Positions 5,359-57,196 of a DNA stretch of 63,510 bases are shown here, in pieces. The translations under genes were made by a program, and so were the position numbers. The notes beneath the pieces were generated by a model. The model did no database searches. It worked only from the letters and a program-made list of their open reading frames with translations, and was not told the DNA's origin. How positions within the stretch are numbered: position 1 is the first letter of the stretch; each line of letters starts with the position of its first letter. Source of the DNA: Acidobacteriota bacterium (GTDB lineage: Bacteria > Acidobacteriota > Vicinamibacteria > Vicinamibacterales > UBA2999); contig JACQZV010000098.1 in the NCBI GenBank assembly GCA_016213695.1, positions 1 to 63,510 of the forward strand, written 5' to 3'.

Positions 5359-8313
5359 ATGACACAGCGGATGATGCGAGTGGTGATGATGTGTGCAGTG
5401 ACGCTGGCGGCCCCGGTGGTGGGGTACGCACAGCAGGACGCCGTGCTGAGCGGCACCGTGAGCGACACAACCGGCGGCGTGCTGCCGGGTGTCGTGGTTC
5501 GCGCGGTGCACGAAGCGACGGGGAACAGTTTCGAGACGGTGACCGACGGGGCCGGGGGCTACAGTCTGCCCGTCCGCGTCGGCACGTACCGCGTCACCGC
5601 GGACCTTACCGGCTTCAACGCGGTCACCCAGACGGGTCTGGAAGTGCTCGTCGGGCAGCAGGTGACGGTTAACATCCAGATGCGGCCGGCGACGCTGCAG
5701 GAGACGGTGACGGTAACCGGCGAGGCGCCGCTCGTTGACGTCACGCGGTCTCGCGTGTCGGGCAACATCGACCCTCGCCAGATGCAGGAACTGCCCGTGC
5801 AGGGCCGCAACTGGATGAACCTGACGATGCTGGCGCCCGGCAGCCGCGTGAACGCGGTGCGCGAGGTGCCGATCACCTCTGAGGCGTCGAGCGTCGGCGT
5901 GCAGATGAACCTGGACGGCCAGCAGGTGACCAACATGGTAGCGCTTGGCTTCGGGCAGCCGCGCTACAGCCGCGATGCCATCGGTGAGTTCGAGTTCGTC
6001 TCGAACCGCTTCGATGCCAGCCAGGGCCGCTCGATGGGCGTGCAGGTGAACGCGGTGACCAAATCGGGCACGAACCAGTACGCCGGCACGTTCTCGGGCT
6101 ACTTCCGGAACGACCGCTTCAATGCGGCCGATCCAATCACCGACAAGGTACTGCCGTACTCGAACCAGCAGCTGAGCACGACCTTCGGCGGTCCGATTCA
6201 GAAGGATCGCTTTCATTTCTTCGCCAGCTACGAGTACGAGCGGGAACCGCAGACCTTCGTCTACAACACGCCGTACCCGAAGTTCAACGGCACGCTGACC
6301 GGCACCCGCAAGGAGTACAAGGAGCTCGGACGAGTCGATTATCAGTTCTCTCCACAGAACCGGCTGTCGGTGCGCCTGTCGCGCTACGACAACCGCATCC
6401 CGTACGACTCGCGCTACACCGGCGGATCCGACCGGACCATGGCGTCGGCCATCGGCACGAACCGGCGGAGCGAGCAGGGGCTCGCCACGTGGACGCAGGT
6501 GCTGGGGAGCCGCAGCGTCAACGAGGTCAAGGGCGGCCACAGCATGTTCCACTGGAACCAGTACGCCCACGTGAAGAACCCGAACACGCTGCCCGGCCAG
6601 ACCTCGGGAGTCGGCGCGCCGAACATCCTGATGAACGGCTTCACGCTGGGCCAGACGCACGCGATCACGCCGCAGGACATCGGCGAGGACTTCTACACGC
6701 TCCGCGACGACCTGAGCCTCTCCTTCAATCGCGGCGGCCGCCACGACCTGCGGATGGGCGGCGAGTACATGTACCACTTCACGTTCGAGACCGTCTGCAA
6801 CCAGTGCATGGGGCAGCTCGATCTGCGGGGCGGGCCGGTGCCTGCCAACATCCAGGACCTCATCGTCGACGTCAACGACGTGTCGACCTGGAACCTGGCG
6901 CCGCTGTCGCCGATCGCGCGGTTCTACCAGCGGGCGATCGGGATGGACAAGTCACCCTACTCGCGGCCGGCGGGGAGCTCCGGGTTCACCGAGTACGCCC
7001 CGCGGCACGTGTACGCGACGTGGCTTCAGGACAACTGGTCGGTATCCCCCAAGCTGACGGTAAATCTCGGTGTGCGCTACGACCTGTCGATCGGCGAGTT
7101 CGTCAACTGGGTGGGGTTCCCGCCGCTCATTGACGCCAACCGGCCGAACGACACGAACAACTTCGGCCCGCGCGTCGGCTTCGCGTACTCGCTGACGAAC
7201 AAGACCGTCGTGCGCGGCGGCTACGGCATCTACTATGCCGAGGTGACCGGCCAGCCGGCCGTCTTCACGCTGCGTAACGTGCAGCAGATCACGCCGCAGA
7301 TCCTGAACGACGGACGGCCTGATTTTGCGTCGAACCCGTTCAACGGGCCGGCACCGAATTACGACCAGGCGGCGCGCCTGTTGTGCACGGTGAACCGCTC
7401 GGCCACCTGCCTGCGCGCCAACGTCGGCAACTTTGTCGCGCCCGACCTGAAATCGCCGTTCAGCCACCAGGCGTCGCTCGGGTTTCAGCGGCAGCTCACG
7501 TCTGTGATGGCGGTCGAGGCCGACTGGGTGTTCACGGGAAATCGCGACATCCTCACCGCCCGGAACATCAACATCGCCTACAACCCGGCCACCGGCGCCA
7601 ACTATCCGTTCAACGACGTCACGCGGCGCCCGCTCGGCGACTGGGGTAACCTCAGCATCAACCGCCCCGACACCGACAACAGCTATCACGCACTGCAGGT
7701 AGGCTTGACCAAGCGCATGAGCAACCGCTGGCAGGCGTCGGCGAGCTATTCACTGGGCGCCCAGTGGAACTTCGACCAGTTGCCGCTGAATCCCGGGTGT
7801 AAGAACCCGATGACTTTCACGCCGGCCACCGGCTTCACGTGTGACGTGCCGATCACGCTCGCGCCCGATATCTCGGAGAACGACTGGTATCTGGCCGGCG
7901 ACCAGCGCCACCGCGTCACATTCAACGGCATCTGGGACGCGGGCTACGGGTTTCAGATGAGCGGCCTCTACATCTTCGGAGACGAGGGGTGGGAGACCCC
8001 CGTGGCTGGCGTGGACGTTCGTGCGACGGGAGGCGCGGGCACGCGGCTGCGCGCGAACGGGACCCTGATCGAGCGCAACAGCTTGGACCGCAAACCGATG
8101 CACCGCGTGGATGCGCGGGTGCAGCGGCGGTTCCGGCTCGGGGGCCGAGCGAACATCGACGGCATCTTCGAGGTGTTCAACCTGTTCAACCGCGCCAACT
8201 ACGAGTCGTACGAGCTGAACGAACGCAACGCGCGGTTCGGCAAACCCAACACCTTCGCGAACATCGCCTACGCGCCGCGGGTGCTGCAGCTCGGCTTCCG
8301 GGCGGCGTTCTAG
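5359..8313 (+). CDS. TonB-dependent receptor, Oar-like (carboxypeptidase-regulatory-like N-domain)
   Basis: Signal peptide, GTVSDTTGGVLPGVVV, LPVQGRNWMNLTMLAPG, NAVTKSGTN, NNFGPRVGFAY, C-terminal PRVLQLGFRAAF; real start MTQR at 5359, not the track's 4552. Confidence 0.88.
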   Translation: MTQRMMRVVMMCAVTLAAPVVGYAQQDAVLSGTVSDTTGGVLPGVVVRAVHEATGNSFETVTDGAGGYSLPVRVGTYRVTADLTGFNAVTQTGLEVLVGQQVTVNIQMRPATLQETVTVTGEAPLVDVTRSRVSGNIDPRQMQELPVQGRNWMNLTMLAPGSRVNAVREVPITSEASSVGVQMNLDGQQVTNMVALGFGQPRYSRDAIGEFEFVSNRFDASQGRSMGVQVNAVTKSGTNQYAGTFSGYFRNDRFNAADPITDKVLPYSNQQLSTTFGGPIQKDRFHFFASYEYEREPQTFVYNTPYPKFNGTLTGTRKEYKELGRVDYQFSPQNRLSVRLSRYDNRIPYDSRYTGGSDRTMASAIGTNRRSEQGLATWTQVLGSRSVNEVKGGHSMFHWNQYAHVKNPNTLPGQTSGVGAPNILMNGFTLGQTHAITPQDIGEDFYTLRDDLSLSFNRGGRHDLRMGGEYMYHFTFETVCNQCMGQLDLRGGPVPANIQDLIVDVNDVSTWNLAPLSPIARFYQRAIGMDKSPYSRPAGSSGFTEYAPRHVYATWLQDNWSVSPKLTVNLGVRYDLSIGEFVNWVGFPPLIDANRPNDTNNFGPRVGFAYSLTNKTVVRGGYGIYYAEVTGQPAVFTLRNVQQITPQILNDGRPDFASNPFNGPAPNYDQAARLLCTVNRSATCLRANVGNFVAPDLKSPFSHQASLGFQRQLTSVMAVEADWVFTGNRDILTARNINIAYNPATGANYPFNDVTRRPLGDWGNLSINRPDTDNSYHALQVGLTKRMSNRWQASASYSLGAQWNFDQLPLNPGCKNPMTFTPATGFTCDVPITLAPDISENDWYLAGDQRHRVTFNGIWDAGYGFQMSGLYIFGDEGWETPVAGVDVRATGGAGTRLRANGTLIERNSLDRKPMHRVDARVQRRFRLGGRANIDGIFEVFNLFNRANYESYELNERNARFGKPNTFANIAYAPRVLQLGFRAAF

Positions 8314-34286: not shown

Positions 34287-35291
34287 ATGGCAATTCGTGT
34301 GGCGCTCATCGGGCTCGGACCCATCGGCGCCGCGGTGGCGCGTCAGCTCGACGGCCGCAGCGGCTTCCGGATCGTGGGGGCCGTGGACATCGATCCGCTC
34401 AAGGCGGGCAAGGATGCCGGTGATGTACTCCAGGTCGGAAGGCGGCTGCGCGTGCGCGTCACCGAGCACATCGGAGGGACGCTGAAGGCCGCCAGGGCAG
34501 ACGTGGCGGTGCTGTGCACCAGCTCGGCGCTCAAGACCGCGCTGCCGCAGTTCGAAGAGGTGCTGAAGCAGCGCGTGCCGATTGTGACCACGACGGAGCA
34601 GGCGGCGTACCCGACGCCGCGGACCCGCCGTTTCGCGAAGCGGCTGGACGAGGCGGCGCGCCGGGCGAAGGTGGCCGTGCTGGGCACCGGTGTCAATCCC
34701 GGGTTCGTGATGGACACGCTCCCGATTGCGCTGACCGCGGCCTGCGAGCGCGTCGACCGCATCGAAGTGCACCGCGTGCAGGACGCGCGCCTGCGCCGGC
34801 TGCCGTTTCAACAGAAGATCGGCGCCGGCCTCACGCGGGACCAGTTCGAGCACGGCCTCGAGCGGGGCTCGCTGCGGCACGTCGGCTTCACCGAATCGAT
34901 CCGGATGATTGCCGACGCGGTGGGCTGGACGCTCGAGCGGGTGACCGACGAGGTCATACCGAAGATCGCCACGCAGCCCGTCGAGAGCGAGCTGCTGGCC
35001 GTCGATCCGGGGTACGTGTGCGGGCTGATTCAGGACGGCACCGGCTACGTCGCCGGGGTGCCGCGCATCAGGCTCCACCTCGAAGCCTACCTCGGCGCGC
35101 CCGAGTCGTACGACTCGGTGCTCATCGAAGGGTCGCCGCAGATCCACTCGATGATCGCCGGCGGCGTGCACGGCGACATCGCGACCGCTGCCATGGTGGT
35201 GAACTCGATTCCCGTCGTGCTCGCCGCGCCGCCCGGCTTGCGCACGATGCGCGACCTGCGGCTGCCCTCGTTCTATTCGGGGCGACGATAA
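34287..35291 (+). CDS. DapB-like NAD(P)-dependent oxidoreductase (2,4-diaminopentanoate dehydrogenase-like)
   Basis: GLGPIG Rossmann motif, LGTGVNPGFVMD, QQKIGAGL, GGVHGDIATAA. Confidence 0.8.
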   Translation: MAIRVALIGLGPIGAAVARQLDGRSGFRIVGAVDIDPLKAGKDAGDVLQVGRRLRVRVTEHIGGTLKAARADVAVLCTSSALKTALPQFEEVLKQRVPIVTTTEQAAYPTPRTRRFAKRLDEAARRAKVAVLGTGVNPGFVMDTLPIALTAACERVDRIEVHRVQDARLRRLPFQQKIGAGLTRDQFEHGLERGSLRHVGFTESIRMIADAVGWTLERVTDEVIPKIATQPVESELLAVDPGYVCGLIQDGTGYVAGVPRIRLHLEAYLGAPESYDSVLIEGSPQIHSMIAGGVHGDIATAAMVVNSIPVVLAAPPGLRTMRDLRLPSFYSGRR

Positions 35292-36355
35292 GCCGGCTGC
35301 CTCGCGGCCGTGTCAGCCCGTTGCTGTTCCAGCCTGAGCTGTGCCGCTCGCGCGCAATCCTGCATGACCCTGAAATACCGCTGCACCCAGTCGGCCCCGA
35401 TGTCGTACGGGTGCGGACCGTTGCCGCGCCCGGCGATCATGCGGTTCTTGCTGACCGCATTGTCGAACTCCGAATGGTTCGAGAGGATGACGGTGGCACC
35501 GGTGGCAGCGGCCTGCGCGGCCATGTGCCGCTGCGAGTCGATATAGGTCTGAAAGTTCCGGATGCCCGGGTCTGGTGTGTTGTTCGTGAAGTTGAATGCC
35601 GTGCCGCCCGAATAGGCCACATTGACCCGGCGGCCCCTGTCCCGCACGGCAAACGTCAGCGACAGCGTGCCCGGCGTGTGGCCCGGGGTTTCCCAGAGGG
35701 TCACCGTCGTGTCGCCGAGCGTGACGTTCATCCCGTCGGTCCCGACGATGTCGCGCTTTGGCGCCATGGTCTTGTACCGGTTCGGGTACGTTTCGACCAG
35801 CCGCCAGTCGGGCGCGCCCATGACGATGCGGGCGCCGAAGCGGGCCTGCAGCATCTCAGCGCCGCCGATATGGTCGGCGTGGGCGTGGGAGATGACGACG
35901 TACTTGATGTCCCGCGGATTGAGGCCCAGCCGCTTCATCCCGCCGAGGATCAACTCCTCTGAATTGTAGGGATAGATCGTATCGAGCAGGATGATGCCGG
36001 CGCTCGTCGTCAGCGCCCAGGACGAGTGCACCTTGCCGCCGACGAAGTAGAGGTTGTCGAAGACCTTCGCCGGATCCGCGTACCAGGTGTCGCGCGCCGG
36101 CGCGCTGGCCGGGTTGGTGACGTATGCCGGCACGGCGTCGGTGGTATTGTCGCCACCGCTCTGCGGCAGCAGGCAGATGCGGGCCAGGGTGCCGAGGAAC
36201 TCGAATCCCGCCGCATCCTTGGCCGACTGGAGCGAGGCCAGGATTTCCGCGTCGAAGTGTCTCGCGGCCGGCCGCTCTTGCGCGGCCGCGCTGATGCCGG
36301 CGAGTCCGGCAACCATGGACACCGCCGCCCCGATTCCGAGCAGCCGCGATTTCAT
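35273..36355 (-). CDS. Secreted metallo-beta-lactamase-fold hydrolase, subclass B3-like
   Basis: Signal peptide; FDNLYFVG, SHAHADHIGG, TPGHTPG, LSNH. Confidence 0.85.
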   Translation of the reverse strand: MKSRLLGIGAAVSMVAGLAGISAAAQERPAARHFDAEILASLQSAKDAAGFEFLGTLARICLLPQSGGDNTTDAVPAYVTNPASAPARDTWYADPAKVFDNLYFVGGKVHSSWALTTSAGIILLDTIYPYNSEELILGGMKRLGLNPRDIKYVVISHAHADHIGGAEMLQARFGARIVMGAPDWRLVETYPNRYKTMAPKRDIVGTDGMNVTLGDTTVTLWETPGHTPGTLSLTFAVRDRGRRVNVAYSGGTAFNFTNNTPDPGIRNFQTYIDSQRHMAAQAAATGATVILSNHSEFDNAVSKNRMIAGRGNGPHPYDIGADWVQRYFRVMQDCARAAQLRLEQQRADTAARQPAYRRPE

Positions 36356-36426
36356 CGGGTGAGTGTACCCGCCAGGCCTGAGACTGTCACTCCGGGCGAT
36401 CGCCGTCCTCCGGCCAGGGAGCGGCT

Positions 36427-39159
36427 TCAGGCGGCGCCGATCGCCTGGGCGCCTTCGGGCGGTTCGAGTCCGTAGCGCACGCGCTTCAGATAGAGGCCTT
36501 TGCGCGACACGCCGAGCAGGGCGGCCGTCTCCTCCATGCGTCCGCCGGTCGTGCGGATCGCATGCTGGATCATCGCGCGCTCGAGGTGCTGGACGGCTGC
36601 GGGCAGCGGCTGATCGATGCGGACGACCAGCTCGGTCGGGTCGAGCACGCGCTCGGACGCGGGGACGGTTCGGCGCGACGCGGCGATGTCGGCTGACAGA
36701 TGTTCGGGCATCAGGACGGCGTTGGTTTCGGCCAGCGCCGCCATGCGCCGCATTTCGTTGGCGAGCTGCCGCACGTTGCCCGGCCACCGGTAGAGCACCA
36801 GATATTCCATCGTCTCTTCGGCGAGGCGGAGCTGTCCCTTGGCGTATTCGTGCGCGTGTTTCTGCAGGTAGTGGTGGGCGAGCGGCGGGATTTCGACGCG
36901 GCGCTCGCGGAGCGGCGGCACGTGCAGGTGGACGATGTTGAGGCGGTAGAAGAGGTCCTCGCGGAGCCGTCCCTGCGCGACGAGGGCGTCGAGGTCGGCG
37001 TTGGTGGCGACGATGACGCGGACGTCGGCGCGCACCGGCTGCACGTCGCCGATTGGATGGACCTCGTTGGATTCGAGGAAGCGCAGCAGCTTCGGCTGCA
37101 CCTCGAGCGTGGTTTCGCCGATCTCGTCGAGGAAGAGCGTGCCGCCGGTGGCGGCGCGAATGACGCCGGGGAAGTGCTCGGTGGCGCCGGTGAACGACCC
37201 TTTGCGGTGGCCGAAGAGCTGCGAATCGAGCATGTCCTTCGGCACGCTGCTGCAGTTGAACGGCAAAAACGTGGCGGCCGCGCGGTTCGAATAGCCGTGG
37301 ATGGTGCGCGCCAGCACTTCCTTGCCGGTGCCGGTTTCGCCGGTGATGAGGACCGGGACCGTGGTGGGCGCGATGCGGCGCGCGGTGGCGAGGAGCGCCT
37401 GCATCTCCTCGGCGAGGAAAAGGGCGCCGGCCTGTTCTTCGATGGGCGGGGCGGGCCAGAGGGCGGCGCGGTTGCGTTCCTCCTCGCGGGCCTGCTCGAG
37501 CGCGAGGGCGTGGCGGCCCATGCGCAGCACGTCGGCCAGGAGGATGGCCTTGGCGGGATCGCCGGGGATCGTGCAGACGAGCGTGAGGTGCTTCTTGCGA
37601 TCGACGCCGAGCGGCAGGACGACGGTCGTGTCGGAGGCGTTGGGCGCGGCGGCGTTCTCACGTGTTTCGACAAGCTTCGCGTCGGGCGAGCAGGCGAGGG
37701 CGTCGATGGCGAACTGCATTTCTTCGCCGAGCAGGCGCGGGCGATGGGCGAGGTCGGTGAAGGCGGCGAGCGAATCGGCGACGCATTCGGCGGTGCCGGC
37801 GCCGTGCGGCGTCGGCGGGGGCGTCGTGTCGGGCTGGGAGTCTGATGGGTTGTCGTCCATTTCCAGGCGAACGGACACGATGCCCTGACCGGCCCATAGT
37901 CGAAGTGCCCGATCCCGAAGCTGCTGCTCCAACGGCGTTGCAAGGCCATGCAGTACAAGCGCCGATGCGTAGTAGTACTGTGCCTGAAGTTCCCTGATGC
38001 TTGTGACATGGAGTTCGTCGGCGCGGACGAGACACAGCGACGCATTATTGAACTCTTGGGATCGTGCCCCTGCGTGGGCAGCAGTCAAGTAAATGGATCC
38101 CTTGAGCGGCACGTCGCTCCCTTGCAAGTAACTTGCGGCTGCTGCATCCAGTGATCGGACGGCTTCGGCAAACTGTCCCTGTCTTATCAAGAGTTGTGCC
38201 GTTGTTATTGCTGCCCATCGCACCTGGTAAAACGAAGCAACCCGGTCGGTCTGCCCAATACCCTGTGAAACAAACCGAAGCGTGTTCTCACAATCCTCGA
38301 GTTCACCGAGAGCTAAGTGCACCCTTGCGAGACCGACAGCTACGCCCACCCTAGTGAACAGGGATGTCTTCTTGTCATTCAGCAGCAGGGAGAACGTTCT
38401 CTTTGCCCTATCGAATTCACCCGCTAGTAGTTGTATGTGGCCAATATTGCTGTCGGCGTTCACTTCGGTTTGGACGTATCCGATCCGGCCTGCGACGAGT
38501 TTCGCCGATCGAAGAAGTTGGGCTGCGTTGCTGAACTCGCAGCGCAATATCGATATACATCCACGATTCAGAAGCAGCAAAGACGCCAACCAGGCATTTG
38601 ACGAAGCCTGCAGCAACGATTCGGCGATACTGCAGTGCCGCTGTGCCTCATCCAAGCGTCCTGTCTGGCCTTCCAGTACGGATACACATATGTGGAGGTA
38701 AGCGGTGGCGGCAGGAACACCTGCTCGATTCACGGTTCGCCTCGCGTCGTTCAGGGCCGTCAGGACGTTACTGATAGGGCCGCTTTCAATTAGGAGTCTC
38801 AGCAGATGCAGGTATGCCCAGGCAGTCAGTTCTACTTCCCTCGACTCCTGTGCAAGGTAGACCGCAGACTGGGCGTGGCGGATCGCGGAAGCCAAATCTC
38901 CACGGCGCCAGTTAACAGTTGCGATTGCTGACTCAGCTTGAGATCTTACAGAAGGCGCTGATGGTGGATGGCAGTCTAGCTCCGCCAAGCGCGCCGCCTC
39001 TTCGAGCTCACTCGTTAGCGTTAAGGCAGTCGCCACAATCACACGATGTCGCGGCTCGAGGCCTCTCCGCTCCTCTTCTGTGCAGGCCGAAACGTGAAGT
39101 AGCTGCCGAAAGTCACCCTGTCTGAATAGTCTCGCTGCTGCTTCGTAACTGGCGCCCAT
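36427..39159 (-). CDS. Sigma54-dependent enhancer-binding protein with long N-terminal TPR-like sensor
   Basis: GETGTGKE, SQLFGHRKGSFTGA, LFLDEIGE, REDLFYRLN, WPGNVRQL, Fis-type HTH; ~430-aa helical N-terminus with no receiver domain; GGAGAGG RBS. Confidence 0.9.
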   Translation of the reverse strand: MGASYEAAARLFRQGDFRQLLHVSACTEEERRGLEPRHRVIVATALTLTSELEEAARLAELDCHPPSAPSVRSQAESAIATVNWRRGDLASAIRHAQSAVYLAQESREVELTAWAYLHLLRLLIESGPISNVLTALNDARRTVNRAGVPAATAYLHICVSVLEGQTGRLDEAQRHCSIAESLLQASSNAWLASLLLLNRGCISILRCEFSNAAQLLRSAKLVAGRIGYVQTEVNADSNIGHIQLLAGEFDRAKRTFSLLLNDKKTSLFTRVGVAVGLARVHLALGELEDCENTLRFVSQGIGQTDRVASFYQVRWAAITTAQLLIRQGQFAEAVRSLDAAAASYLQGSDVPLKGSIYLTAAHAGARSQEFNNASLCLVRADELHVTSIRELQAQYYYASALVLHGLATPLEQQLRDRALRLWAGQGIVSVRLEMDDNPSDSQPDTTPPPTPHGAGTAECVADSLAAFTDLAHRPRLLGEEMQFAIDALACSPDAKLVETRENAAAPNASDTTVVLPLGVDRKKHLTLVCTIPGDPAKAILLADVLRMGRHALALEQAREEERNRAALWPAPPIEEQAGALFLAEEMQALLATARRIAPTTVPVLITGETGTGKEVLARTIHGYSNRAAATFLPFNCSSVPKDMLDSQLFGHRKGSFTGATEHFPGVIRAATGGTLFLDEIGETTLEVQPKLLRFLESNEVHPIGDVQPVRADVRVIVATNADLDALVAQGRLREDLFYRLNIVHLHVPPLRERRVEIPPLAHHYLQKHAHEYAKGQLRLAEETMEYLVLYRWPGNVRQLANEMRRMAALAETNAVLMPEHLSADIAASRRTVPASERVLDPTELVVRIDQPLPAAVQHLERAMIQHAIRTTGGRMEETAALLGVSRKGLYLKRVRYGLEPPEGAQAIGAA

Positions 39160-39192
39160 CGCACCTCTCCGAGAACGTTACGAGATGGCCCG

Positions 39193-41127
39193 TCAGGCCT
39201 TCTGGTTTGGGAATGACACCACGTTTGAGGAAGTGTTTGCGACGAGGGATGAGATCCGACTGGCGAGGGCAGAGCCAACGTGCTCGAACGTGTAGCGATG
39301 GCCTTCGTTAAAGGCATCCTTCTTGGCGGAGTATGCCGTTAGCACTCCCATCAAGCTGTCGCCTTGGACGAGCGGCGTGCTGAGGGTACTGCGCAATGGA
39401 GGTGCAAAGAACCCGGCAATTTGTGCTAAGTCCAGTGATGCATCTGAGTTAACTGACGCGCGACGATTCGCCGCGGTCCAGCCAGTGATTCTCTCGCCCA
39501 GCTTAATGGATAGGTTGTCCAAGAGGTGCTGGTTGTCTCCGTAAGCACTCACGCAGGTCAATATGTCTGCCGTGCTGTTATAAACAAATACCGCATAAAT
39601 GGTCGCCGGAGTGAGTTGTCGCAGGTAATGACCGGCACTCTGCAGTGCCGTCGCGGTCGAAGTCGCTCTCGCGATGTCCCTTGAACAGGTGTCCAGGAGC
39701 GTAGTTTCGGATGCATTCGCACGAATGTGCCGCAACGGTGCGGCCGTGTCGTCAATGGACGTTGTGAGTCCAGCCGCATCGATGATGCTGCGAGCGTCCT
39801 GGCCAGCCTGAATGGCGACGGGCGCGATCTCTTCGTACGCGTTGATGAACGTATCAACCACGAAGGGGTCGTACATCGTACCTCGGCTCTGACGAATTAT
39901 CGCGAACGCCTCATCGGTGCCCAGACGTGGACGATACGGTCGGTCGGATGTGAGGGCGTCAAAACAATCGACCACCGAGAGAATCCGTGCGCCTAGCGGA
40001 ATATCGGTTCCGGATATTCCTGTGGGATACCCCGTCCCGTCCCAGCATTCGTGATGGTGACGAACGATCGGGACGACGGGGTAGGGAAATCTGACAGAGG
40101 AGAGGAGATCGGCGCCAATGTCGGCATGGCGCTTCATCTTCTCGAACTCGGCAGCGCTAAGCTTCCCTGGTTTGTTCAGGATGTGTTCAGGGATGGCGAG
40201 TTTGCCCATGTCGTGGAGTAAAGCGGCGGTCGTAATGGCCTGCAGTTGCCGTTCCTCCGTAACACCGAGACGTTTCGCGAGTTCGACTGCAAACACCTGA
40301 ACCCGTCGGATGTGGCCGTGAGTGATCTGGTCTTTGGCATCTACAGCCATAGCCAGGGCCTCGATTGTGGACATGTAGAGGTCATTGAGCTGGACCACGT
40401 GCCGGTTAGCATCCTCGACCCGACCCAATGTCGACCGAAAGGTGTAGTACGAAATCAGGAGCAGCGGGATGATGATACTTAGGACCGTAACGTCTATCTG
40501 ATCCGTGTAAGCAACAATCAGCATTGCGAGCGAGCCGCCGACAAAATAATTGATGCTCGTACCGGGGAAATTGTTCGCCCAGAGTCGCACAACGCGTTCT
40601 CGGCGTTCGACCGCTAATGCACCTGCAACGAGACCGGTGTTGATGATGAAATACAAGAAAATGAACGCGAATACCGGAGTGATTAGTTGAGAAATGTCGT
40701 GACGGCCGATCTGTCCCGGGTGGGCGCCCGACAAATAGAAGAACGCCTCGCTTGCTAACCGAATTGCAATAGCGGGTGCGGTTCCGTTGAAGAGCACCTT
40801 CAGGGGCGATCTTCTCATTCGGTCTAGCCAGAAGGAGATGACTAGGGCGTCTAGAACGACGATGATGGTCCCAGCTGCGGGACCAAAGAGTAATACCGCG
40901 GTGAAGATGAAAGTTTCCGATACGGAAAGCCGGGCCTGTAGCCCAGGGACTCTTACCGTGAACGAACCGGTGAACAGAGTCAGGGCCGCCAAGACAAGCC
41001 ACTCAAGTCCCGGCGGGTCTAGTGACACTTGCCACAGGGATTGCGCGACTACGAAGAGGCCGGTCGCAATTACGACCGTTAGATATTGATGTCGGCGGCG
41101 TTCACTCGCCTTGGGTGTAACAGACAC
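39193..41127 (-). CDS. Membrane-anchored HD-GYP phosphodiesterase with C-terminal GAF domain
   Basis: ~6 N-terminal TM segments; DAKDQITHGHIRRV, LLHDMGK, HHHECWDGTGYPTG, VDCFDALTSDRPYR; GAF-like tail. Confidence 0.9.
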   Translation of the reverse strand: MSVTPKASERRRHQYLTVVIATGLFVVAQSLWQVSLDPPGLEWLVLAALTLFTGSFTVRVPGLQARLSVSETFIFTAVLLFGPAAGTIIVVLDALVISFWLDRMRRSPLKVLFNGTAPAIAIRLASEAFFYLSGAHPGQIGRHDISQLITPVFAFIFLYFIINTGLVAGALAVERRERVVRLWANNFPGTSINYFVGGSLAMLIVAYTDQIDVTVLSIIIPLLLISYYTFRSTLGRVEDANRHVVQLNDLYMSTIEALAMAVDAKDQITHGHIRRVQVFAVELAKRLGVTEERQLQAITTAALLHDMGKLAIPEHILNKPGKLSAAEFEKMKRHADIGADLLSSVRFPYPVVPIVRHHHECWDGTGYPTGISGTDIPLGARILSVVDCFDALTSDRPYRPRLGTDEAFAIIRQSRGTMYDPFVVDTFINAYEEIAPVAIQAGQDARSIIDAAGLTTSIDDTAAPLRHIRANASETTLLDTCSRDIARATSTATALQSAGHYLRQLTPATIYAVFVYNSTADILTCVSAYGDNQHLLDNLSIKLGERITGWTAANRRASVNSDASLDLAQIAGFFAPPLRSTLSTPLVQGDSLMGVLTAYSAKKDAFNEGHRYTFEHVGSALASRISSLVANTSSNVVSFPNQKA

Positions 41128-41153
41128 ACTCGTTTGTACCGCACCTTATCGGC

Positions 41154-41183
41154 TTAGTCGCCCCAAACAATTATTCTTCGCAC
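41154..41183 (-). other. Isolated IIVWGD-stop unit: relic S8 tail or 9-aa micro-ORF (MRRIIVWGD)
   Basis: Minus strand reads GGGGG-AAATA-GTG CGA AGA ATA ATT GTT TGG GGC GAC TAA; out of frame with S8 (stops 49 nt apart). Confidence 0.4.
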
Positions 41184-41202
41184 TATTTCCCCCGAATCTG
41201 CG

Positions 41203-42873
41203 TTAGTCGCCCCAGACGGTGGTGTCGCCCCAGACGGTGGTGTCGCCCCAGACGGTGGTGTCGCCCCAGACGGCGGTGTCGCCCCAGACGGCGGTGTCGC
41301 CCCAGACGGTGGTGTCGCCCCAGACGGTGGTGTCGCCCCAGACGGCGGTGTCGCCCCAGACGGCGGTGTCGCCCCAGACGGTGGTGTCGCCCCAGAGTGT
41401 TATTGCGCCAAAGACAACTCCACCGCTCGAAACCGTCTCCCCCGCAATAACCGTCACCGGCGGCCCTTCGGAGTCAGCCGCACTCAGCGCCGCCACGACG
41501 TTCAAGCTGCCGGCCCCCGCACGCAGCAACCCAATCGGCATCGCCTCCGCGCTCGCCTGCAGAGTCGCCCGCACCTGGAGCGGATTGAGCGCGCGCGCGT
41601 CGAGCAGCAGCGCCGTCGCCCCCGAGACCACCGCGGCCGACATGCTCGTCCCCGACAACTGCAGCCGCTTGCCCTCGGCTGTATCGATGACGAGCTCCGG
41701 GTGCTCCCGCGCAAGCGTCGACCCCGGCGCCAGCAGCCCCACAACCTTGTTCCCCGGCGCCACCAGATCCGGCTTGATGAGGCCGTCAAACAGCGTCAGG
41801 CCACGCGAGCTGTACGTCGTGATCACGTCGTCAGACCGCTGCGCCGTCCCCTTCGTGTTGAGCGCGCCCACCGTGATCGCATAGGGCGAATTGCCCGGCA
41901 CCGTGATCCCGCCGAATACCTCGGTGCCGGCCGCATCCTTACCGTGGTTGCCGGCCGACGCCACCACGACGAGGCCCGCGCGATACGCGCGCTCCACCGC
42001 CTGGCACAACGGATCGTCGGCGCACCGCTGCAGCACCGGCCCGCCGAGCGACAGGTTGATCACCTTGATGCCGTAGCGATCGCGGTTCGCAATCGCCCAG
42101 TCGATCGCGTCAATCACGTCGGCCGCATAGCCGGCGCCGTTCGCGTCGAGCACCTTCAGGTTGATGAGACGCGCGCCCGGCGCGACACCGCGCGTCGGGT
42201 CCTTCGAGTTCGCCCCGGACGCCGCGATGATCCCTGCCACGTGCGTGCCGTGTCCGTTGTCGTCGCCGGCGTTCCCGCGCACCCCGGCGCCGGCGTCCGC
42301 GCAGTCGGTCTTCCCGACCTTCTGGCCCGATCGTTTGGACGCCGCCGTGAAGTCAACGCTCACGACAATGCGGCCGCGGAGCTGCGGCAGATCCGCAATG
42401 CCCGTGTCGACGACTGCCACGCCGATGCCGTCGCCGGTCACCCCGTCCGCGCCCGGCGCCCACCCGTCGGTCCACACCTGGTCGGCGCCAATCGCCACGG
42501 TGGTCACCGCCATCTGCGGCTGCACCCGGTAGTTGCTCGACAAGGCGCCGAGCCGGCCGTCGGCCGCCAGCGCGCTCAGCGCGCCGGCCGGCACCGCAAC
42601 CACCGCGCCGGTCTTCAGCCGCTTGCCGACGCGCAGGCCGTGCCGCGCCGCCAGCGTGTCGATCTGCGCCTGTGTCCCGGGGACGATGACGCAGGTCTCT
42701 TCAGTGGTGCCAGCTTGGAGCCGCTCGGTCAGGTCCTCGGAAAGGCGCGCACGCCGGCCCTGCGCCAACGCGTCGGTCCCGGAAAGCAGGAGTACCGCAC
42801 ACAGCAGGGCATGGAGTGTCCGGCTGCTGCCAGACACGACGAGTGACCAACGATTTCCGGGGCACGGGACCAA
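41203..42873 (-). CDS. Secreted S8 subtilase (AprX-like) with C-terminal (xxxWGD)11 repeat tail
   Basis: VAVVDTG, HGTHVAG, SAGN, SGTSMSAAVVSG; signal-peptide-like LLCAVLLLSGTDALAQ; start uncertain (42873 or GTG 42837). Confidence 0.92.
   Translation of the reverse strand: MVPCPGNRWSLVVSGSSRTLHALLCAVLLLSGTDALAQGRRARLSEDLTERLQAGTTEETCVIVPGTQAQIDTLAARHGLRVGKRLKTGAVVAVPAGALSALAADGRLGALSSNYRVQPQMAVTTVAIGADQVWTDGWAPGADGVTGDGIGVAVVDTGIADLPQLRGRIVVSVDFTAASKRSGQKVGKTDCADAGAGVRGNAGDDNGHGTHVAGIIAASGANSKDPTRGVAPGARLINLKVLDANGAGYAADVIDAIDWAIANRDRYGIKVINLSLGGPVLQRCADDPLCQAVERAYRAGLVVVASAGNHGKDAAGTEVFGGITVPGNSPYAITVGALNTKGTAQRSDDVITTYSSRGLTLFDGLIKPDLVAPGNKVVGLLAPGSTLAREHPELVIDTAEGKRLQLSGTSMSAAVVSGATALLLDARALNPLQVRATLQASAEAMPIGLLRAGAGSLNVVAALSAADSEGPPVTVIAGETVSSGGVVFGAITLWGDTTVWGDTAVWGDTAVWGDTTVWGDTTVWGDTAVWGDTAVWGDTTVWGDTTVWGDTTVWGD
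41206..41403. repeat. In-frame 18-bp tandem repeat x11 encoding T(T/A)VWGD
   Basis: gtcgccccagacgg(t/c)ggt x10 plus one divergent ITLWGD unit. Confidence 0.97.
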
Positions 42874-42891: not shown

Positions 42892-43152
42892 TCAGGTTCG
42901 GGCGGGTCTCAGGACAAAGGTGGCCGCCGACGCCGACGTTGAAAAGGGCTGGGGCTGGAACCCCAGGCCGTAGAGCGATTCGACGAGCACGCGCTGCGAC
43001 CCGCCCATCGTGCGGATCGTCAGCAGACGCCCGTCGCGTATCCGGTAGTAGACCGTGCGGCGTGAGACCTTCAGGAGCTGCGCGGCCTGATCGATCGACA
43101 CGCTTCGTCCGAGACGCAGTTCAGAAGCGGACGCTGATAATTCGGTATGCAC
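42892..43152 (-). CDS. Small excisionase-like (HTH_17/MerR-type) DNA-binding protein
   Basis: VSIDQAAQLLKVSRRTVYYRIRDGRLLTIR. Confidence 0.8.
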   Translation of the reverse strand: MHTELSASASELRLGRSVSIDQAAQLLKVSRRTVYYRIRDGRLLTIRTMGGSQRVLVESLYGLGFQPQPFSTSASAATFVLRPART

Positions 43153-43175: not shown

Positions 43176-43190
43176 GCAGGGTTGGTGCCA
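43176..43190 (-). promoter_or_regulatory. Sigma54 -24/-12 promoter for the HTH-S8-HD-GYP-EBP operon
   Basis: Minus strand TGGCAC-CAACC-CTGC (GG-N10-GC), ~24 nt before the HTH start. Confidence 0.65.
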
Positions 43191-43368
43191 CATCCGGGCG
43201 CGAAGGGGCGCAGCGGGGTAAGCGACCGACACTCAGTGGGTTACAGCAGGCGGATACCTGCGGCCGGCAGCGAGGGGGTGGCGCCAGTGGTCAGGGGCTT
43301 GGCCGCCCGGGCCGCCGGCTGCCCGTTGCAGCAGTGGGCAATCTGCACAGCGATGTGTTGAAATCTGC

Positions 43369-45144
43369 ATGGATTCACCGAGCGGCCAAGAAATTGACCA
43401 GGGTGGCAGAAACCTGCGCGTAAAACGCTCCGTCATCGCGGCTGTCGCCGGCGCCGCGCTCCTGCTCGCTTTGGCGCTGCTGTTCCTGCGGCGTCCCGGT
43501 GGTCCAGCGCCACCAGTGAGTCCGGCGCGCGGCGGCCAGATTGTTGCGTCGATCCGCGCCGAGCCGCGGTCGTTCAACCGCCTCGTCGCCCGCGACCAGT
43601 CCACCGACCTCCTGACGTTCCTGACCCAGGGCCGGCTCGTACGGATCAACCGCGCCTCCTTCGATCTGGAGCCCTGGCTGGCCGAGCGGTGGGAGTCGAG
43701 CGCCGACGGACGCGTGCACACGCTGCACCTGCGGCCCGGCGTGACCTGGTCCGACGGGATGCCGTTCACCTCAGCCGACGTGCTGTTCTCGGTGCAGGCG
43801 GTCTTCGACCGGCGCGCCCAGAGCGTGCTGGCCAGCAGCCTCGCCGCCGGCGGGCAGCCGATTCGCGCCGCGGCGCCCGACGCGCAGACGGTCGTCATCA
43901 CCTTTCCTGTGCCGTCCGGCCCCGGGCTGCGCCTGCTCGACCAGTTGCCAATCCTGCCGAAGCACAAGCTGCAGGGAGCGCTCGCGGCCGGGACGTTTGC
44001 CTCCGCGTGGAATGCCGCGACGCCACCGGCCGAGATCGTCGGCACGGGCCCCTTCGTCGTGCGCGAGTACCAGCCGGGACAGCGCGTCGTGCTCGACAGG
44101 AACCCGCGCTACTGGCGGCGCGCCCCCGACGGCGCCGCGCTCCCGTACCTCGATCGCATCGTCCTCGAGATCGTGCCCGAGCAGAACGCGGAGCTGCTGC
44201 GGCTGCAGTCGGGGGGCACCGACCTCTCGTCGAGCGAGCTGCGTCCGGAGGATTACGCTCCGGTCAAACAGGCGGAGGAGCAGGGACGGCTGCGGCTCGT
44301 CGAGCTCGGCGTCGGTCCGGATGCCGACGCGTTCTGGTTCTGCCTCAAGCCCGAGGTCAAGGGCAAAGACCCCCGTTTCGTGTTCGTGCAGCGGCCGGAG
44401 TTTCGGGCGGCCATCTCGCATGCGGTCGACCGCGAGGCATTCGCCCACACCGTGTTCCTGGGCGCCGCGGTGCCCGTGTGGGGTCCCGTCACGCCCGGCA
44501 ACACGCAGTGGTTCTGGCCCGACGTGCCCCGTTATGCGTACGACGAGGCGCGCGCGCGCGATCTGCTCGCGGGCCTTGGCCTCGAGGATCGCGATCACAA
44601 CGGGGTGGTTGAGGACGCGCGCGGTACCGAAGCACGCTTCACCGTCATCACGCAGCGGGGCATCGGCTGGTACGAGCGGGGCACCGCCGTGCTCCGCGAG
44701 AGCCTGGCGCGCGTCGGCATCGCGATCGATGTCGCGCCGCTCGAATTCGGCGCGATGATCCAGCGGATGCTCGCGTGCGACTACGACGCCATGTACTACC
44801 GGCCGGTCTTCACGGATCTCGACCCGGCCGGCAACCTCGACTTCTGGCTCACCTCCGGCTCCGCGCATGTGTGGAACCTGGAGCAGCGCGTGCCCGCCAC
44901 CGAGTGGGAGCGGCGGATCGACACGCTGATGCTCGAGCAGGCGGCGACAATCGATCCCGAGCGGCGGCACGAGCAGTTCAACCTCGTGCAGCGCATCGCC
45001 GGCGAGAACCTGCCGGTGCTCTACTTCGCGGCGCCGCGGCTCTACTACGGGCACAGCGTCCGCCTGCGCGGCGTCGTCCCGTCCGTCCTGCGGCCGCCGG
45101 TGTTGTGGAACGCCGACAGTCTCAGCGTGGCGCCCGGTGAGTAG
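43369..45144 (+). CDS. ABC transporter substrate-binding protein, family 5 (peptide/nickel)
   Basis: LEPWLAERW, LRPGVTWSDGMPFTSADVLFS, GTGPF, RAAISHAVDR; N-terminal membrane anchor; start uncertain. Confidence 0.88.
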   Translation: MDSPSGQEIDQGGRNLRVKRSVIAAVAGAALLLALALLFLRRPGGPAPPVSPARGGQIVASIRAEPRSFNRLVARDQSTDLLTFLTQGRLVRINRASFDLEPWLAERWESSADGRVHTLHLRPGVTWSDGMPFTSADVLFSVQAVFDRRAQSVLASSLAAGGQPIRAAAPDAQTVVITFPVPSGPGLRLLDQLPILPKHKLQGALAAGTFASAWNAATPPAEIVGTGPFVVREYQPGQRVVLDRNPRYWRRAPDGAALPYLDRIVLEIVPEQNAELLRLQSGGTDLSSSELRPEDYAPVKQAEEQGRLRLVELGVGPDADAFWFCLKPEVKGKDPRFVFVQRPEFRAAISHAVDREAFAHTVFLGAAVPVWGPVTPGNTQWFWPDVPRYAYDEARARDLLAGLGLEDRDHNGVVEDARGTEARFTVITQRGIGWYERGTAVLRESLARVGIAIDVAPLEFGAMIQRMLACDYDAMYYRPVFTDLDPAGNLDFWLTSGSAHVWNLEQRVPATEWERRIDTLMLEQAATIDPERRHEQFNLVQRIAGENLPVLYFAAPRLYYGHSVRLRGVVPSVLRPPVLWNADSLSVAPGE

Positions 45145-46126
45145 CTTCCTGGCCCGGCGCCTGTTGTTTGCGCTCGCGCTCGTGGTCGTCGTGTCGTCGT
45201 CGGCGCTGCTGCTGGCGCGGCTGGCGCCCGGAGACGTCACCGCCGAGCTCGGCCCGTTTGCCGGCGCCGCCGAGATTGCCGGCACGCGCGCGCGGTTCGA
45301 TCTTGACCGCAACCCCGCGTCGCAATGGGTCGTCTGGATGGCGCGGGCCGCGCGCTTCGAGTTCGGCGACTCGTTTCTCTACAACCGGCCCGTGCGCGGG
45401 CTCGTGCTGCGCGCCGCCGCCAATACGGCGGTGCTGGCGCTCGCCGCGCTGGCGCTGGCGACGCTTGTCGGGATACCGCTCGGCATCGTGGCGGGCAGCC
45501 GGCAGGGAACGGGCGCCGCCGTGATCCGCGCGGCGTCGCTCGTCTGCCTCTCGGTGCCGCCGCTCCTCACCTCGCTCCTGCTCGTGTTCGTCGCCGCCAC
45601 CACTCGCTGGTTTCCTCTCGGCGGGATGACGTCGGTGGCCGCCGTCGGCCCGAGCGGGCCGGCCTGGCTGGCCGACGTCGCCGTCCACCTGCCGCTGCCG
45701 GTGCTCGCGCTCGCGCTGCCGATTGCCGCCACGTTCGAGCGGCTGCAGGCACAGGCGATCACCGACGCGCTGCGCCAGCCGTTTGCGCTCGCCGCGGTGG
45801 CGCGGGGCCTGTCGGCCCGCGACGTCGTGCTCCGCCACGCGTGGCGCGTGTCTCTCCGTCCTCTCTGCGGCGTGTACGGGCTGGCGGTCGGCGCGCTGCT
45901 GTCGGGGTCGTTCGTCGTGGAGTTCGTGACCGCGTGGCCGGGCCTCGGGCGCCTCACCTACGAGGCGCTGCGCGCGCGCGATATCTATCTGGTGGCCGGG
46001 TGCGCGGCGATGGGCGGCGTGTTTCTCGCGCTCGGCAGCCTCGTCGGCGACCTGTTGCTCCTCGCGGCCGATCCCCGCCTGCGTGAGGCGGCCCGGGCCC
46101 GTTCCGGCGAAAGGCAGACCGCATGA
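45137..46126 (+). CDS. Peptide ABC permease (OppB/DppB-like)
   Basis: LARLAPGD, FEFGDSF, AVARGLS...HAWR (EAA-like loop), TAWPGLGRL. Confidence 0.9.
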   Translation: MSSFLARRLLFALALVVVVSSSALLLARLAPGDVTAELGPFAGAAEIAGTRARFDLDRNPASQWVVWMARAARFEFGDSFLYNRPVRGLVLRAAANTAVLALAALALATLVGIPLGIVAGSRQGTGAAVIRAASLVCLSVPPLLTSLLLVFVAATTRWFPLGGMTSVAAVGPSGPAWLADVAVHLPLPVLALALPIAATFERLQAQAITDALRQPFALAAVARGLSARDVVLRHAWRVSLRPLCGVYGLAVGALLSGSFVVEFVTAWPGLGRLTYEALRARDIYLVAGCAAMGGVFLALGSLVGDLLLLAADPRLREAARARSGERQTA

Positions 46127-47097
46127 GGCGCGCCGGGCAGGGGCTGCTCGCGCTCGTCGTGCTCGGCGCGGCCGCCGCGCCCTGGCTCGCGCCCAATCCG
46201 CCCGATCGGACCTTCCCGGCCGCACTCTATGCGCCGCCCACGCCTGTCAGGCTGCGGCACGCCGGCCTGCGGGCGCCGTTCATCTATCCGCAGCGCGTCG
46301 TCAGCGCGCTTGAGCGGCGATTCGAAGAGGACGCGACGCGTCCCGTGCCGCTGCAGTGGTTCCGCGACGGCCGGCTGGTCACCGTGCCCGACGCCGGCGG
46401 CGGTCCGCTGCTGCTGCTCGGCGCCGACAGCCTCGGCCGCGACACGTTCTCGCGCCTGCTGTACGGCGCGCGCACCTCGCTCGTGCTCGCCGCCGCGTCC
46501 ACGCTGCTCGCGCTGCTTGTCGGAGCCCTCATCGGCGGCATCGCCGGGTATGCCGGCGGCGTCGCCGACGAAACGCTGTCGCGGCTGACGGACTTCGTGC
46601 TCGTGCTGCCGGCCATGTACGTAGCGCTCGCGCTGCGCGCCGTCATGCCGCTCGTGCTGCCGCCGGCCACCGTGTTCGCGCTGCTGACGGCCATTTTTGC
46701 GCTACTGGGGTGGCCGGTCGTCGCCCGCGGCGTGCGCGCCATCGTCGCCTCCGAGCGCGAGCGCGAATACGTCGTCGCCGGCCGGGCGCTCGGCGCCACG
46801 CCGTCGCGCCTGCTCGCGCGGTACCTCCTGCCCGCGGCCGGCGGGTACCTGGCGGTGCAGGCCACGCTGCTCCTGCCCGCATTCATCCTGGCCGAGGCCA
46901 CGCTCTCGTACGTCGGCCTCGGCTTTCCGGCGACGGTGCCCACCTGGGGCACGATGCTGCAGGAGGCGGCCAACGTGTCCCTGCTCGGCGGGGCGCCGTG
47001 GGTGCTCGCTCCGGCCGCAGCGATCTTCGTCGTCGTGCTTGCGGTGAACCTGGTGGTGCAGGGAACCGGCCGGGCGCCTGTACAATTGGAGCCATGA
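46123..47097 (+). CDS. Peptide ABC permease (OppC/DppC-like)
   Basis: LLGADSLGRDTFSRLLYGARTSL, EYVVAGRALGA, EATLSYVGLG, WGTML. Confidence 0.9.
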   Translation: MRRAGQGLLALVVLGAAAAPWLAPNPPDRTFPAALYAPPTPVRLRHAGLRAPFIYPQRVVSALERRFEEDATRPVPLQWFRDGRLVTVPDAGGGPLLLLGADSLGRDTFSRLLYGARTSLVLAAASTLLALLVGALIGGIAGYAGGVADETLSRLTDFVLVLPAMYVALALRAVMPLVLPPATVFALLTAIFALLGWPVVARGVRAIVASEREREYVVAGRALGATPSRLLARYLLPAAGGYLAVQATLLLPAFILAEATLSYVGLGFPATVPTWGTMLQEAANVSLLGGAPWVLAPAAAIFVVVLAVNLVVQGTGRAPVQLEP

Positions 47098-57180: not shown

Positions 57181-57196
57181 CGGCACTATGCTTGCT
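57181..57196 (+). promoter_or_regulatory. Sigma54 -24/-12 promoter upstream of lpxC
   Basis: CGGCAC-TATGC-TTGCT (GG-N10-GC with TTGC). Confidence 0.65.

Follow-up and report, generated by a model that had tools for sequence, protein, structure and literature searches.

A receiver-less sigma-54 activator of Vicinamibacterales with a TPR-like sensor encoded in an AT-shifted, apparently exchangeable half of its gene

Introduction

What does a sigma-54 activator sense when its N-terminus is a tetratricopeptide-repeat (TPR)-like superhelix and not a receiver domain, and why does the half of the gene that encodes this sensor differ so sharply in composition and variability from the half that encodes the output? 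These questions are raised by a 910-residue bacterial enhancer-binding protein (EBP), P0001, encoded at 36427..39159 on the minus strand of contig JACQZV010000098.1 from an Acidobacteriota genome of the order Vicinamibacterales (assembly GCA_016213695.1). The window, by which we mean the whole stretch of DNA that was analysed, is 63,510 nt long. Sigma-54 activators are textbook signal integrators. Among those without a receiver domain, NorR, NifA and FhlA sense through GAF domains and DmpR and XylR through V4R domains, and PspF carries no sensor. No study is known of an activator with a TPR sensor, and our full-text literature searches found no characterised TPR-EBP.

A sequence-only reading of this gene had called it chimeric and had drawn attention to its GSFTGA loop, which stands in place of GAFTGA. 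We found that the main interest of the gene is its sensor half, which appears to be swapped between strains, and not the loop. The gene is indeed a mosaic at the junction between sensor and output, both in its composition and at the population level, a sense of the word that the earlier reading had not stated. Taken jointly, a complete EBP with a TPR sensor, an operon that it would itself activate, negative control by the TPR module and a swappable low-GC sensor block make up a reading that we consider probable.

Results

A complete one-component activator

The EBP gene, defined by its open reading frame (ORF) and translation, its domain matches and 31 full-length orthologues, begins with an ATG at 39159. 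A Shine-Dalgarno sequence (GGAGAGG) lies 5 nt upstream, and the ATG lines up with the starts of the orthologues in an alignment; for these two reasons we prefer the 910-residue reading to the database gene call, which is shorter (853 aa). The AAA+ core and lid that would interact with sigma-54 lie at 36664..37410 (minus strand; aa 584-832), where Pfam identifies Sigma54_activat (PF00158) at aa 584-745 with an E-value of 2e-61 and AAA_lid_14 (PF25601) at aa 751-832. A Fis-type helix-turn-helix (HTH), HTH_8 (PF02954), follows at 36472..36585 (minus strand; aa 859-896; Pfam E 5.7e-9). The translation contains a Walker A motif, GETGTGK, at aa 607-613, the Walker B residues DE at aa 678-679 and the GSFTGA loop at aa 654-659 (nt 37183-37200); Walker A, Walker B, the G[SA]FTGA loop and an arginine-rich region are invariant across 31 sequences. 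The cores of EBPs of solved structure (NtrC1, ZraR, NifA, FleQ and PspF) match at E-values from 1e-50 to 1e-63, with NtrC1 at 1.8e-63. Pfam gives no Response_reg domain. Many EBP families of NCBIfam match, at aa ~540-900 only and every one under its equivalog cutoff, so that the protein, though an EBP, falls outside the named subfamilies. The genome contains rpoN (G000:C33) and roughly 20 EBPs.

These results bear out the earlier description of a one-component sigma-54 activator that lacks a receiver and has an intact AAA+ core and a Fis HTH; the strings it had quoted, AWAYLHLLRLL and NIGHIQLLAGEFDRAKRTF, are both present in the translation. On sequence grounds, then, the protein is a complete, receiver-less, one-component EBP. 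The emphasis on the loop fared less well. GSFTGA is present, but it is an ordinary functional variant and not notable: it is the majority form among the 31 sequences, with GAFTGA in some members, and EBPs of Desulfovibrio vulgaris with GSFTGA have mapped regulons, GSFTGA being listed among the functional variants (PMC4641369). This mix within the family and the published regulons rule out a meaningful defect in the loop.

A word-indexed search returned about 35 homologues of full length (902-914 aa), with 53-72% identity, annotated, where an annotation was given, as "NtrC family response regulator / TPR repeat protein"; one fragment came from a Vicinamibacterales metagenome-assembled genome (MAG). 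When whole genomes were searched, full-length orthologues, at least 31 of them and mainly in Vicinamibacterales, turned up in several genera of the source's own family as well as in other families within the order. A profile of the N-terminal 570 aa recovered more than 300 representatives at 50% identity (E<=1e-30), and the complete proteins among them are all about 890-960 aa long with the module at the N-terminus, which indicates that the sensor belongs to this EBP family. TPR sensors on EBPs had been described as uncommon; this holds among studied proteins only, given the more than 300 clusters and the existence of other TPR-EBP families. Among the orthologues, identity runs to 71-92% in the AAA+ core but to no more than 28-57% in the TPR part; for the core together with the lid (aa 584-832) the figure is 83-92%.

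A TPR-like superhelix joined to the output by a linker and a small domain

The putative sensor occupies aa 1-436 (37852..39159, minus strand), the half of the gene with low GC content at third codon positions (GC3), and its TPR-like character emerges from Pfam, AlphaFold and Foldseek. TPR_MalT (PF17874) matches aa 44-340 at 45.8 bits against a cutoff of 45, and weaker TPR families match as well. When the full-length model was searched with Foldseek, it gave AAA+ matches only, with poor TM-scores, because its AAA+ part was badly modelled; aa 1-570 were hence modelled alone. The AlphaFold model of this segment, built from ten orthologues, has a predicted local distance difference test score (pLDDT) of 89.6 and a predicted TM-score of 0.86, and contains 24 helices over aa 5-434 at a pLDDT of about 90-97. 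A Foldseek search of the PDB with this model returned TPR proteins only. The best by target-normalised TM-score (TMt) was RapJ bound to PhrC (4gyo; TMt 0.70-0.71, root-mean-square deviation 5.7 A), and the second-best was MalT domain III (1hz4; TMt 0.67, E 4.8e-7).

The earlier reading had proposed that the N-terminus be compared with the TPRs of RRNPP proteins and MalT; run with Foldseek, this comparison puts RapJ-PhrC and MalT domain III at the top, and the N-terminus is TPR-like, as claimed. A profile search against the PDB found no significant homology to RRNPP proteins (NprR E 0.62, RapJ E 0.8), and by this measure the N-terminus is a generic TPR. The input module of ~435 aa is thus modelled as a TPR superhelix of the Rap/MalT-domain-III fold type, a likeness at the level of the fold only.

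A disordered, proline-rich linker follows (37798..37851, minus strand; aa 437-454; pLDDT <50), and then a small alpha/beta domain and a long helix that belong to no Pfam family and are modelled at a pLDDT of about 90 (37450..37797, minus strand). In the model the small domain (aa 457-530) consists of two helices and three strands, and the long helix (aa 535-567) enters the AAA+ core; in alignments with the NorR, PrpR and PEP-CTERM regulator profiles, this helix falls on their linker regions. The same region had been described as a degenerate GAF-like stretch, a claim that finds no support in the sequence. With a threshold as loose as E<=10, aa 450-575 matched neither GAF nor PAS in six orthologues; the sole match was to the unrelated Phytochelatin_C (E 0.14, in one of the six). 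The model has no more than three strands here. A true GAF domain occupies the equivalent position in P0057, an unrelated EBP with the order TPR-GAF-AAA+-HTH, but BLASTP between it and our protein aligns the AAA+ and HTH parts only. We therefore rejected a GAF-like domain at aa 455-566; "degenerate GAF" is at most a positional analogy.

The sensor half is AT-shifted throughout the family

GC3 is 0.57 over aa 1-439 of the EBP gene and 0.90 thereafter, and the change-point (aa ~439) falls inside the disordered linker. The sensor half belongs to a low-GC trough (37845..41200; 55-58% GC against 69% for the genome) that also takes in a nine-codon ORF and the gene of an HD-GYP protein, both described below. 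In the 3.75-Mb genome, with a mean GC content of 0.686 and a standard deviation of 0.026, only 14 runs fall below 60% GC; the trough is the second longest of them and lies more than five standard deviations below the genome mean. The longest run (G000:C167:29501-34000, outside the window) measures 4.5 kb at 54-61% GC and contains short ORFs and one HTH-like N-terminus. We rejected it as a second cassette of the same kind, as it looks like an ordinary foreign island or one related to insertion sequences.

A GC3 step is found in 30 of the 31 full-length orthologues, with change-points at aa 267-608, mostly at aa 420-560; in the G014 orthologue the whole gene is low in GC. The low-GC trough, too, is kept in orthologous loci, and the TPR half and the HD-GYP gene persist through an order of Acidobacteria as one fast-diverging block. 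At the 30-60% identity that separates the TPR proteins, synonymous sites are saturated, and thus the AT shift of the sensor half must be actively maintained and does not represent foreign DNA that has yet to ameliorate.

An alternative account, confined to this MAG, would make the low-GC half either a mis-join or a horizontal insertion of recent date, and the 910-aa ORF an accidental fusion. The compositional step within the gene is sharp, and the genome is a MAG of 203 contigs with 4% contamination, both of which would suit such an accident. However, the same architecture, reading frame and GC step occur in 30 other full-length orthologues, among them some on contigs of 0.3-5 Mb and from at least five genera with conserved flanking genes, and no integrase, transposase or tRNA lies at the trough edges. 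An assembly chimera or a recent island in this MAG is refuted by the orthologous ORF, the synteny and the GC step, and we regard any version of this account as extremely unlikely.

Divergent sensor alleles sit on near-identical backbones

Comparison of metagenome contigs uncovered pairs of loci in which DNA that is close to identical adjoins strongly divergent sensors. L123 and L136 share 6135 nt of 3' DNA at 99.9%, a stretch that starts at EBP aa ~530 and takes in 5 kb of downstream genes, yet their sensors are 30% identical at the amino acid level, with the break at aa ~530. The same holds for L129 and L126 (6121 nt at 99.4%; sensors 31% identical; break at aa ~545) and, with less divergent sensors, for L029 and L030 (1753 nt at 98.4%; 50%; aa ~397). 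Each break coincides with a GC3 step or lies close to one. Between the two alleles of the L123/L136 pair, nucleotide identity is about 70% in the HD-GYP gene and about 43% in the TPR part. L123 and L136 also differ in the repeat unit at the tail of the neighbouring S8 protease (WSDGLV vs WGDGII/V) and in the product of the nine-codon ORF (MCRLIIWSE vs MRTLIIWSE).

Identical junctions were recovered in separate assemblies (L122 = L123; L131 = L132, close to L129; L014 = L116 = L117). Several contigs (L134, L135, L137, G011:C93, G027:C83 and G023:C65) start or stop within a few dozen codons of the boundary between sensor and output, a pattern to be expected where the coexistence of several sensor alleles breaks up the assembly graph. 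In three of four related pairs the synonymous divergence (dS) of the TPR part is 3-6x that of the 3' half, and in L113/L114 the two are about equal; the higher dS fits older allele lineages, with codon constraint in the GC-rich half contributing. The sensor half thus looks like an exchangeable, long-lived allelic cassette that is swapped between strains.

Could the same observations arise from an ordinary metabolite-sensing EBP with a MalT-like pocket, whose low GC3 reflects weak codon selection and whose apparent swaps are assembly artefacts between related species? TPR_MalT matches at threshold, MalT domain III is the second-best Foldseek match, the mosaic junctions sit where conservation begins, and a ratio of nonsynonymous to synonymous divergence of 0.06-0.18 in the TPR part of related alleles indicates plain purifying selection. 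But the neighbouring S8 gene is about as divergent (45-72% identity) and yet has native GC, and with only 14 low-GC runs genome-wide, fast evolution alone does not lower GC here. An artefact would also have to produce the same junctions in separate assemblies, beside 6 kb of shared DNA at 99.4-99.9%, and to account for the many contigs that stop exactly at the boundary, as coexisting alleles would make them do. Sensors that are 30% identical on one backbone are, moreover, hard to reconcile with a fixed metabolite. We consider this explanation very improbable.

The activator closes a conserved operon with a sigma-54 promoter-like element

The EBP gene is the last of a conserved same-strand cluster that encodes, in order, a small HTH protein, an S8 protease, the nine-codon ORF, the HD-GYP protein and the EBP; the operon appears to end with the EBP because the downstream gene differs between relatives (DUF4097 in L030). 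Ahead of the cluster lies a sigma-54 promoter-like element, TGGCAC-N5-CTGC(CA), at 43176..43190 (minus strand), which matches the -24/-12 consensus. In five orthologous intergenic regions the form TGGCA[CT]-N5-CTGCCA does not vary, although the rest of these regions is unconserved; the element is also present in L118. About 100-200 bp upstream of this promoter, an inverted repeat (arms 43288-43310 and 43378-43400) may serve as an enhancer; its 23-nt arms are 78% complementary and 67 nt apart, with a conserved TTGGCC / GGCCAA. Scans for sigma-70 promoters and for terminators gave results at chance level. Elsewhere in the window, CGGCACTATGCTTGC at 57181-57195 (plus strand), in a stretch of 62.6% GC, has one mismatch to the sigma-54 -24/-12 consensus and may offer one of the EBPs in this genome a second target.

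The first gene after the promoter encodes a small HTH_17-type protein of 86 aa (Pfam HTH_17; 42892..43152, minus strand), strongly conserved in an alignment of five loci. The second encodes a putatively secreted S8 subtilase (Pfam Peptidase_S8; 41203..42873, minus strand) with a signal-peptide-like N-terminus. Its C-terminal tail is made of 11 hexapeptide units, WGDT[TA]V, in an array at 41206-41396 (minus strand) that TRF resolves as 10.6 near-perfect copies with a period of 18 nt. The unit varies by lineage, the forms including WGDTTV, WSDGIG, WSDQII, YGDTLV, WGNTLV and WSEGIH. The copy number of the array differs between two samples of one allele (15 units in L122, 16 in L123), and the array of the G018 orthologue contains a stretch of N (L014, about 6300-6450).

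Between the S8 stop and the HD-GYP start lies the nine-codon ORF (41154..41183, minus strand), which has a GTG start and reads M-RRIIVWGD before its stop codon. Across 24 loci, the pattern M-x-x-L-I-I-W-[GS]-[DE] recurs together with a GGAG-type Shine-Dalgarno sequence; the 9-aa product lacks an export signal. Loci without the HD-GYP gene also lack the ORF, and the ORF thus travels with that gene. The HD-GYP gene itself (39193..41127, minus strand) encodes a MASE9-HD-GYP-GAF membrane protein of 644 aa (Pfam HD_5 at 1.9e-40, GAF_2 and MASE9) and lies 33 nt upstream of the EBP gene. On the other side of the promoter, an Opp/Dpp-type peptide ABC importer (43369..47097, plus strand; SBP_bac_5 and two permeases by Pfam) is transcribed divergently.

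Importer, S8, HD-GYP and EBP genes are syntenic in most orthologous loci, not only throughout the family but also in other families within the order; in the G034 and G014 loci the HD-GYP gene and the nine-codon ORF are both missing. In three loci (L013 of G001, L016 of G002 and L020 of G010) matches to the S8, HD-GYP or EBP genes are spread over two or three reading frames, with frame switches in the EBP near aa 99 in G002 and near aa 355-390 in G010. These may be either frameshift pseudogenes or long-read assembly errors. Within the window, an ORF at 35273-36787 (minus strand) labelled "MBL-fold" overlaps the 3' end of the EBP gene merely as an out-of-frame extension, and the true metallo-beta-lactamase-fold gene probably starts after 36400. 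We also set aside a role in anti-phage defence, as the PADLOC matches are generic only (RtcR-type AAA+, subtilase and HD domains).

The close association with the HD-GYP gene suggests a different role for the TPR module, namely as a docking module for the co-encoded MASE9-HD-GYP-GAF protein, with the membrane enzyme sensing an external cue and the EBP switched by sequestration or release, or by local cyclic di-GMP (c-di-GMP) or pGpG. The EBPs FleQ and VpsR are regulated by c-di-GMP. Their structures are among the EBP structure matches, and the HD and HHExxDGxGYP catalytic motifs of the HD-GYP protein are intact. The two genes, 33 nt apart in one low-GC block and syntenic in most loci, both differ between mosaic-pair alleles, and co-evolution of the pair would explain the shared variable block. 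However, the TPR-EBP is kept without an adjacent HD-GYP gene in the G034, G014 and L118 orthologues, the TPR part diverges far more than the HD-GYP protein, and no FleQ-type c-di-GMP motif was identified, although by inspection only and with no formal test. We judge docking of this kind to be unlikely.

Discussion

Our results support a model in which a TPR-like sensor restrains a sigma-54 activator and is encoded in a gene half that is exchanged as a unit. NtrC1 and DctD are controlled through their receiver and linker, and DmpR and XylR are repressed by their sensors. In P0001, the unliganded TPR module, acting through the long helix, would keep the AAA+ domains non-hexameric, and binding of a ligand would release them. 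The EBP would then activate the promoter of its own operon and so establish positive feedback. Homologous recombination may replace the sensor block as a whole, the crossovers falling within the conserved 3' half of the gene. The AT shift could persist because divergent alleles rarely recombine internally and thereby escape GC-biased repair; alternatively, there may be selection for AT-richness.

The ligand is predicted to be lineage-specific and would most likely be made by the operon itself. A peptide or protein is plausible because of the hexapeptide tail of the S8 protease, the nine-codon ORF and the adjacent Opp-type importer. The leading candidate, though a tentative one, is a peptide, namely a hexapeptide from the S8 tail that the transporter would bring back in or, with lower odds, the product of the nine-codon ORF. 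It is doubtful that the HD-GYP protein serves as the binding partner, and a small molecule, as in MalT, seems decidedly unlikely, being a poor fit with sensor alleles that are 30% identical. An extended form of the peptide proposal would be a self-inducing, strain-specific circuit, in which S8 hexapeptides are released, imported by the Opp-type transporter and read by the TPR module, and in which the HD-GYP, TPR sensor and tail units form a pherotype cassette exchanged by recombination; we offer this as speculation.

Several observations weigh against parts of this picture. With regard to the ligand, the tail unit and the TPR part covary weakly (partial Spearman 0.20, permutation p 0.05), and L013 and L018 provide a counterexample, as they have the same WSDGIA tail and TPRs that are 30% identical. 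The core of the nine-codon ORF is conserved while the TPR part is hypervariable, and the ORF is lost with the HD-GYP gene and not with the EBP. L118 is a minimal version of the locus, with promoter, HTH and EBP only and neither protease nor HD-GYP gene adjoining the EBP. With regard to the exchange of sensors, the mosaic pairs are short-read metagenome contigs with junctions at the first conserved stretch, and L136 and L126, each seen in one assembly only, could still be products of path-switching by the assembler. The apparent difference in age could be exaggerated by a lower dS in the 3' half, where GC3 is constrained. Among the loci compared there is no pair with the same sensor allele on divergent backbones, nor one in which the sensors are more alike than the backbones, so that recent transfer between lineages is without support. 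With regard to the protein itself, the AAA+ part of the full-length model is of low confidence, and we infer ATPase activity, promoter activation, the ligand and the direction of control.

Fold, operon context and population data alike suggest that the bacteria themselves produce the ligand, and the locus makes the sensing of a peptide or protein by an EBP directly testable, as it offers a defined promoter, a sensor domain and few candidate ligands. A hypervariable, AT-shifted sensor half across a whole order of abundant soil bacteria recalls the cassette pattern of Gram-positive quorum sensing, here in Acidobacteria. If the self-inducing circuit exists, Vicinamibacterales would have a peptide circuit not described before, with many long-lived "pherotypes". 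The composition of the cassette is of interest in its own right. A block with a GC3 of ~0.57 in genomes at ~0.9 bears on how high GC is kept up, by biased gene conversion or by selection, and a non-recombining block that decays toward AT would, if this is what it is, be a natural test of the causes of high bacterial GC.

How does this system compare with those already known? It shares with the non-receiver EBPs the AAA+ core, the G[AS]FTGA loop, the C-terminal Fis HTH, an N-terminal sensor, a linker helix and one-component logic. Unlike the EBPs of solved structure, it has a predicted 24-helix TPR superhelix as its sensor, in a hypervariable low-GC cassette, and unlike the GAF-domain EBPs of the NifA/NorR/FhlA type it has no GAF match between the N-terminus and the AAA+ core.

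The resemblance to the RRNPP proteins (Rap, NprR, PlcR and PrgX) lies in the modelled cytoplasmic TPR superhelix, the adjacent Opp-type importer and the candidate peptide sources in the operon. The differences are the lack of sequence homology and an output that is an AAA+ sigma-54 activator instead of an XRE HTH or a phosphatase; in addition, RRNPP systems of Bacillota have exported pro-peptide genes of the Phr or PapR type, whereas none is present here, in the phylum Acidobacteriota. MalT is likewise close in having a TPR sensor (TPR_MalT at threshold and the 1hz4 match) that would gate an oligomerising ATPase and transcription activator. In contrast to MalT and the other signal transduction ATPases with numerous domains (STAND), however, P0001 has no nucleotide-binding oligomerisation domain (NOD) of the AAA_16 or NB-ARC type and no LuxR/GerE HTH, and its ATPase is of the sigma-54 EBP clade; the AAA_16 match is a sub-threshold echo of the EBP P-loop (21.1 bits vs 32.6 in Pfam). 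Judged by its sequence, the protein is an EBP. It is not an RRNPP protein, given the lack of homology and the different output, nor a MalT/STAND member, as it has neither the NOD nor the LuxR HTH, but it shares their sensor fold.

At the level of the locus, the closest parallels are the pherotype loci agrBDCA of Staphylococcus and comQXPA of Bacillus. As in these, the edge of the hypervariable block lies inside the receptor gene at the junction between sensor and output, divergent alleles sit on near-identical flanks (here in metagenome contigs), and the circuit would be autoinduced, as the promoter suggests. Unlike these, the receptor is a cytoplasmic TPR-EBP and not a membrane histidine kinase, covariation between signal and receptor is weak, and the cassette is strongly AT-shifted in a 69% GC genome. 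Lasting atypical composition, extreme allelic divergence and recombination in conserved flanks are also found in low-GC replacement loci such as those for O-antigen, capsule and pilin and the pyoverdine region of Pseudomonas. Those loci are biosynthesis clusters for surface structures, whereas the cassette described here encodes signalling domains, both cytoplasmic and membrane-bound, and ends in the middle of a gene.

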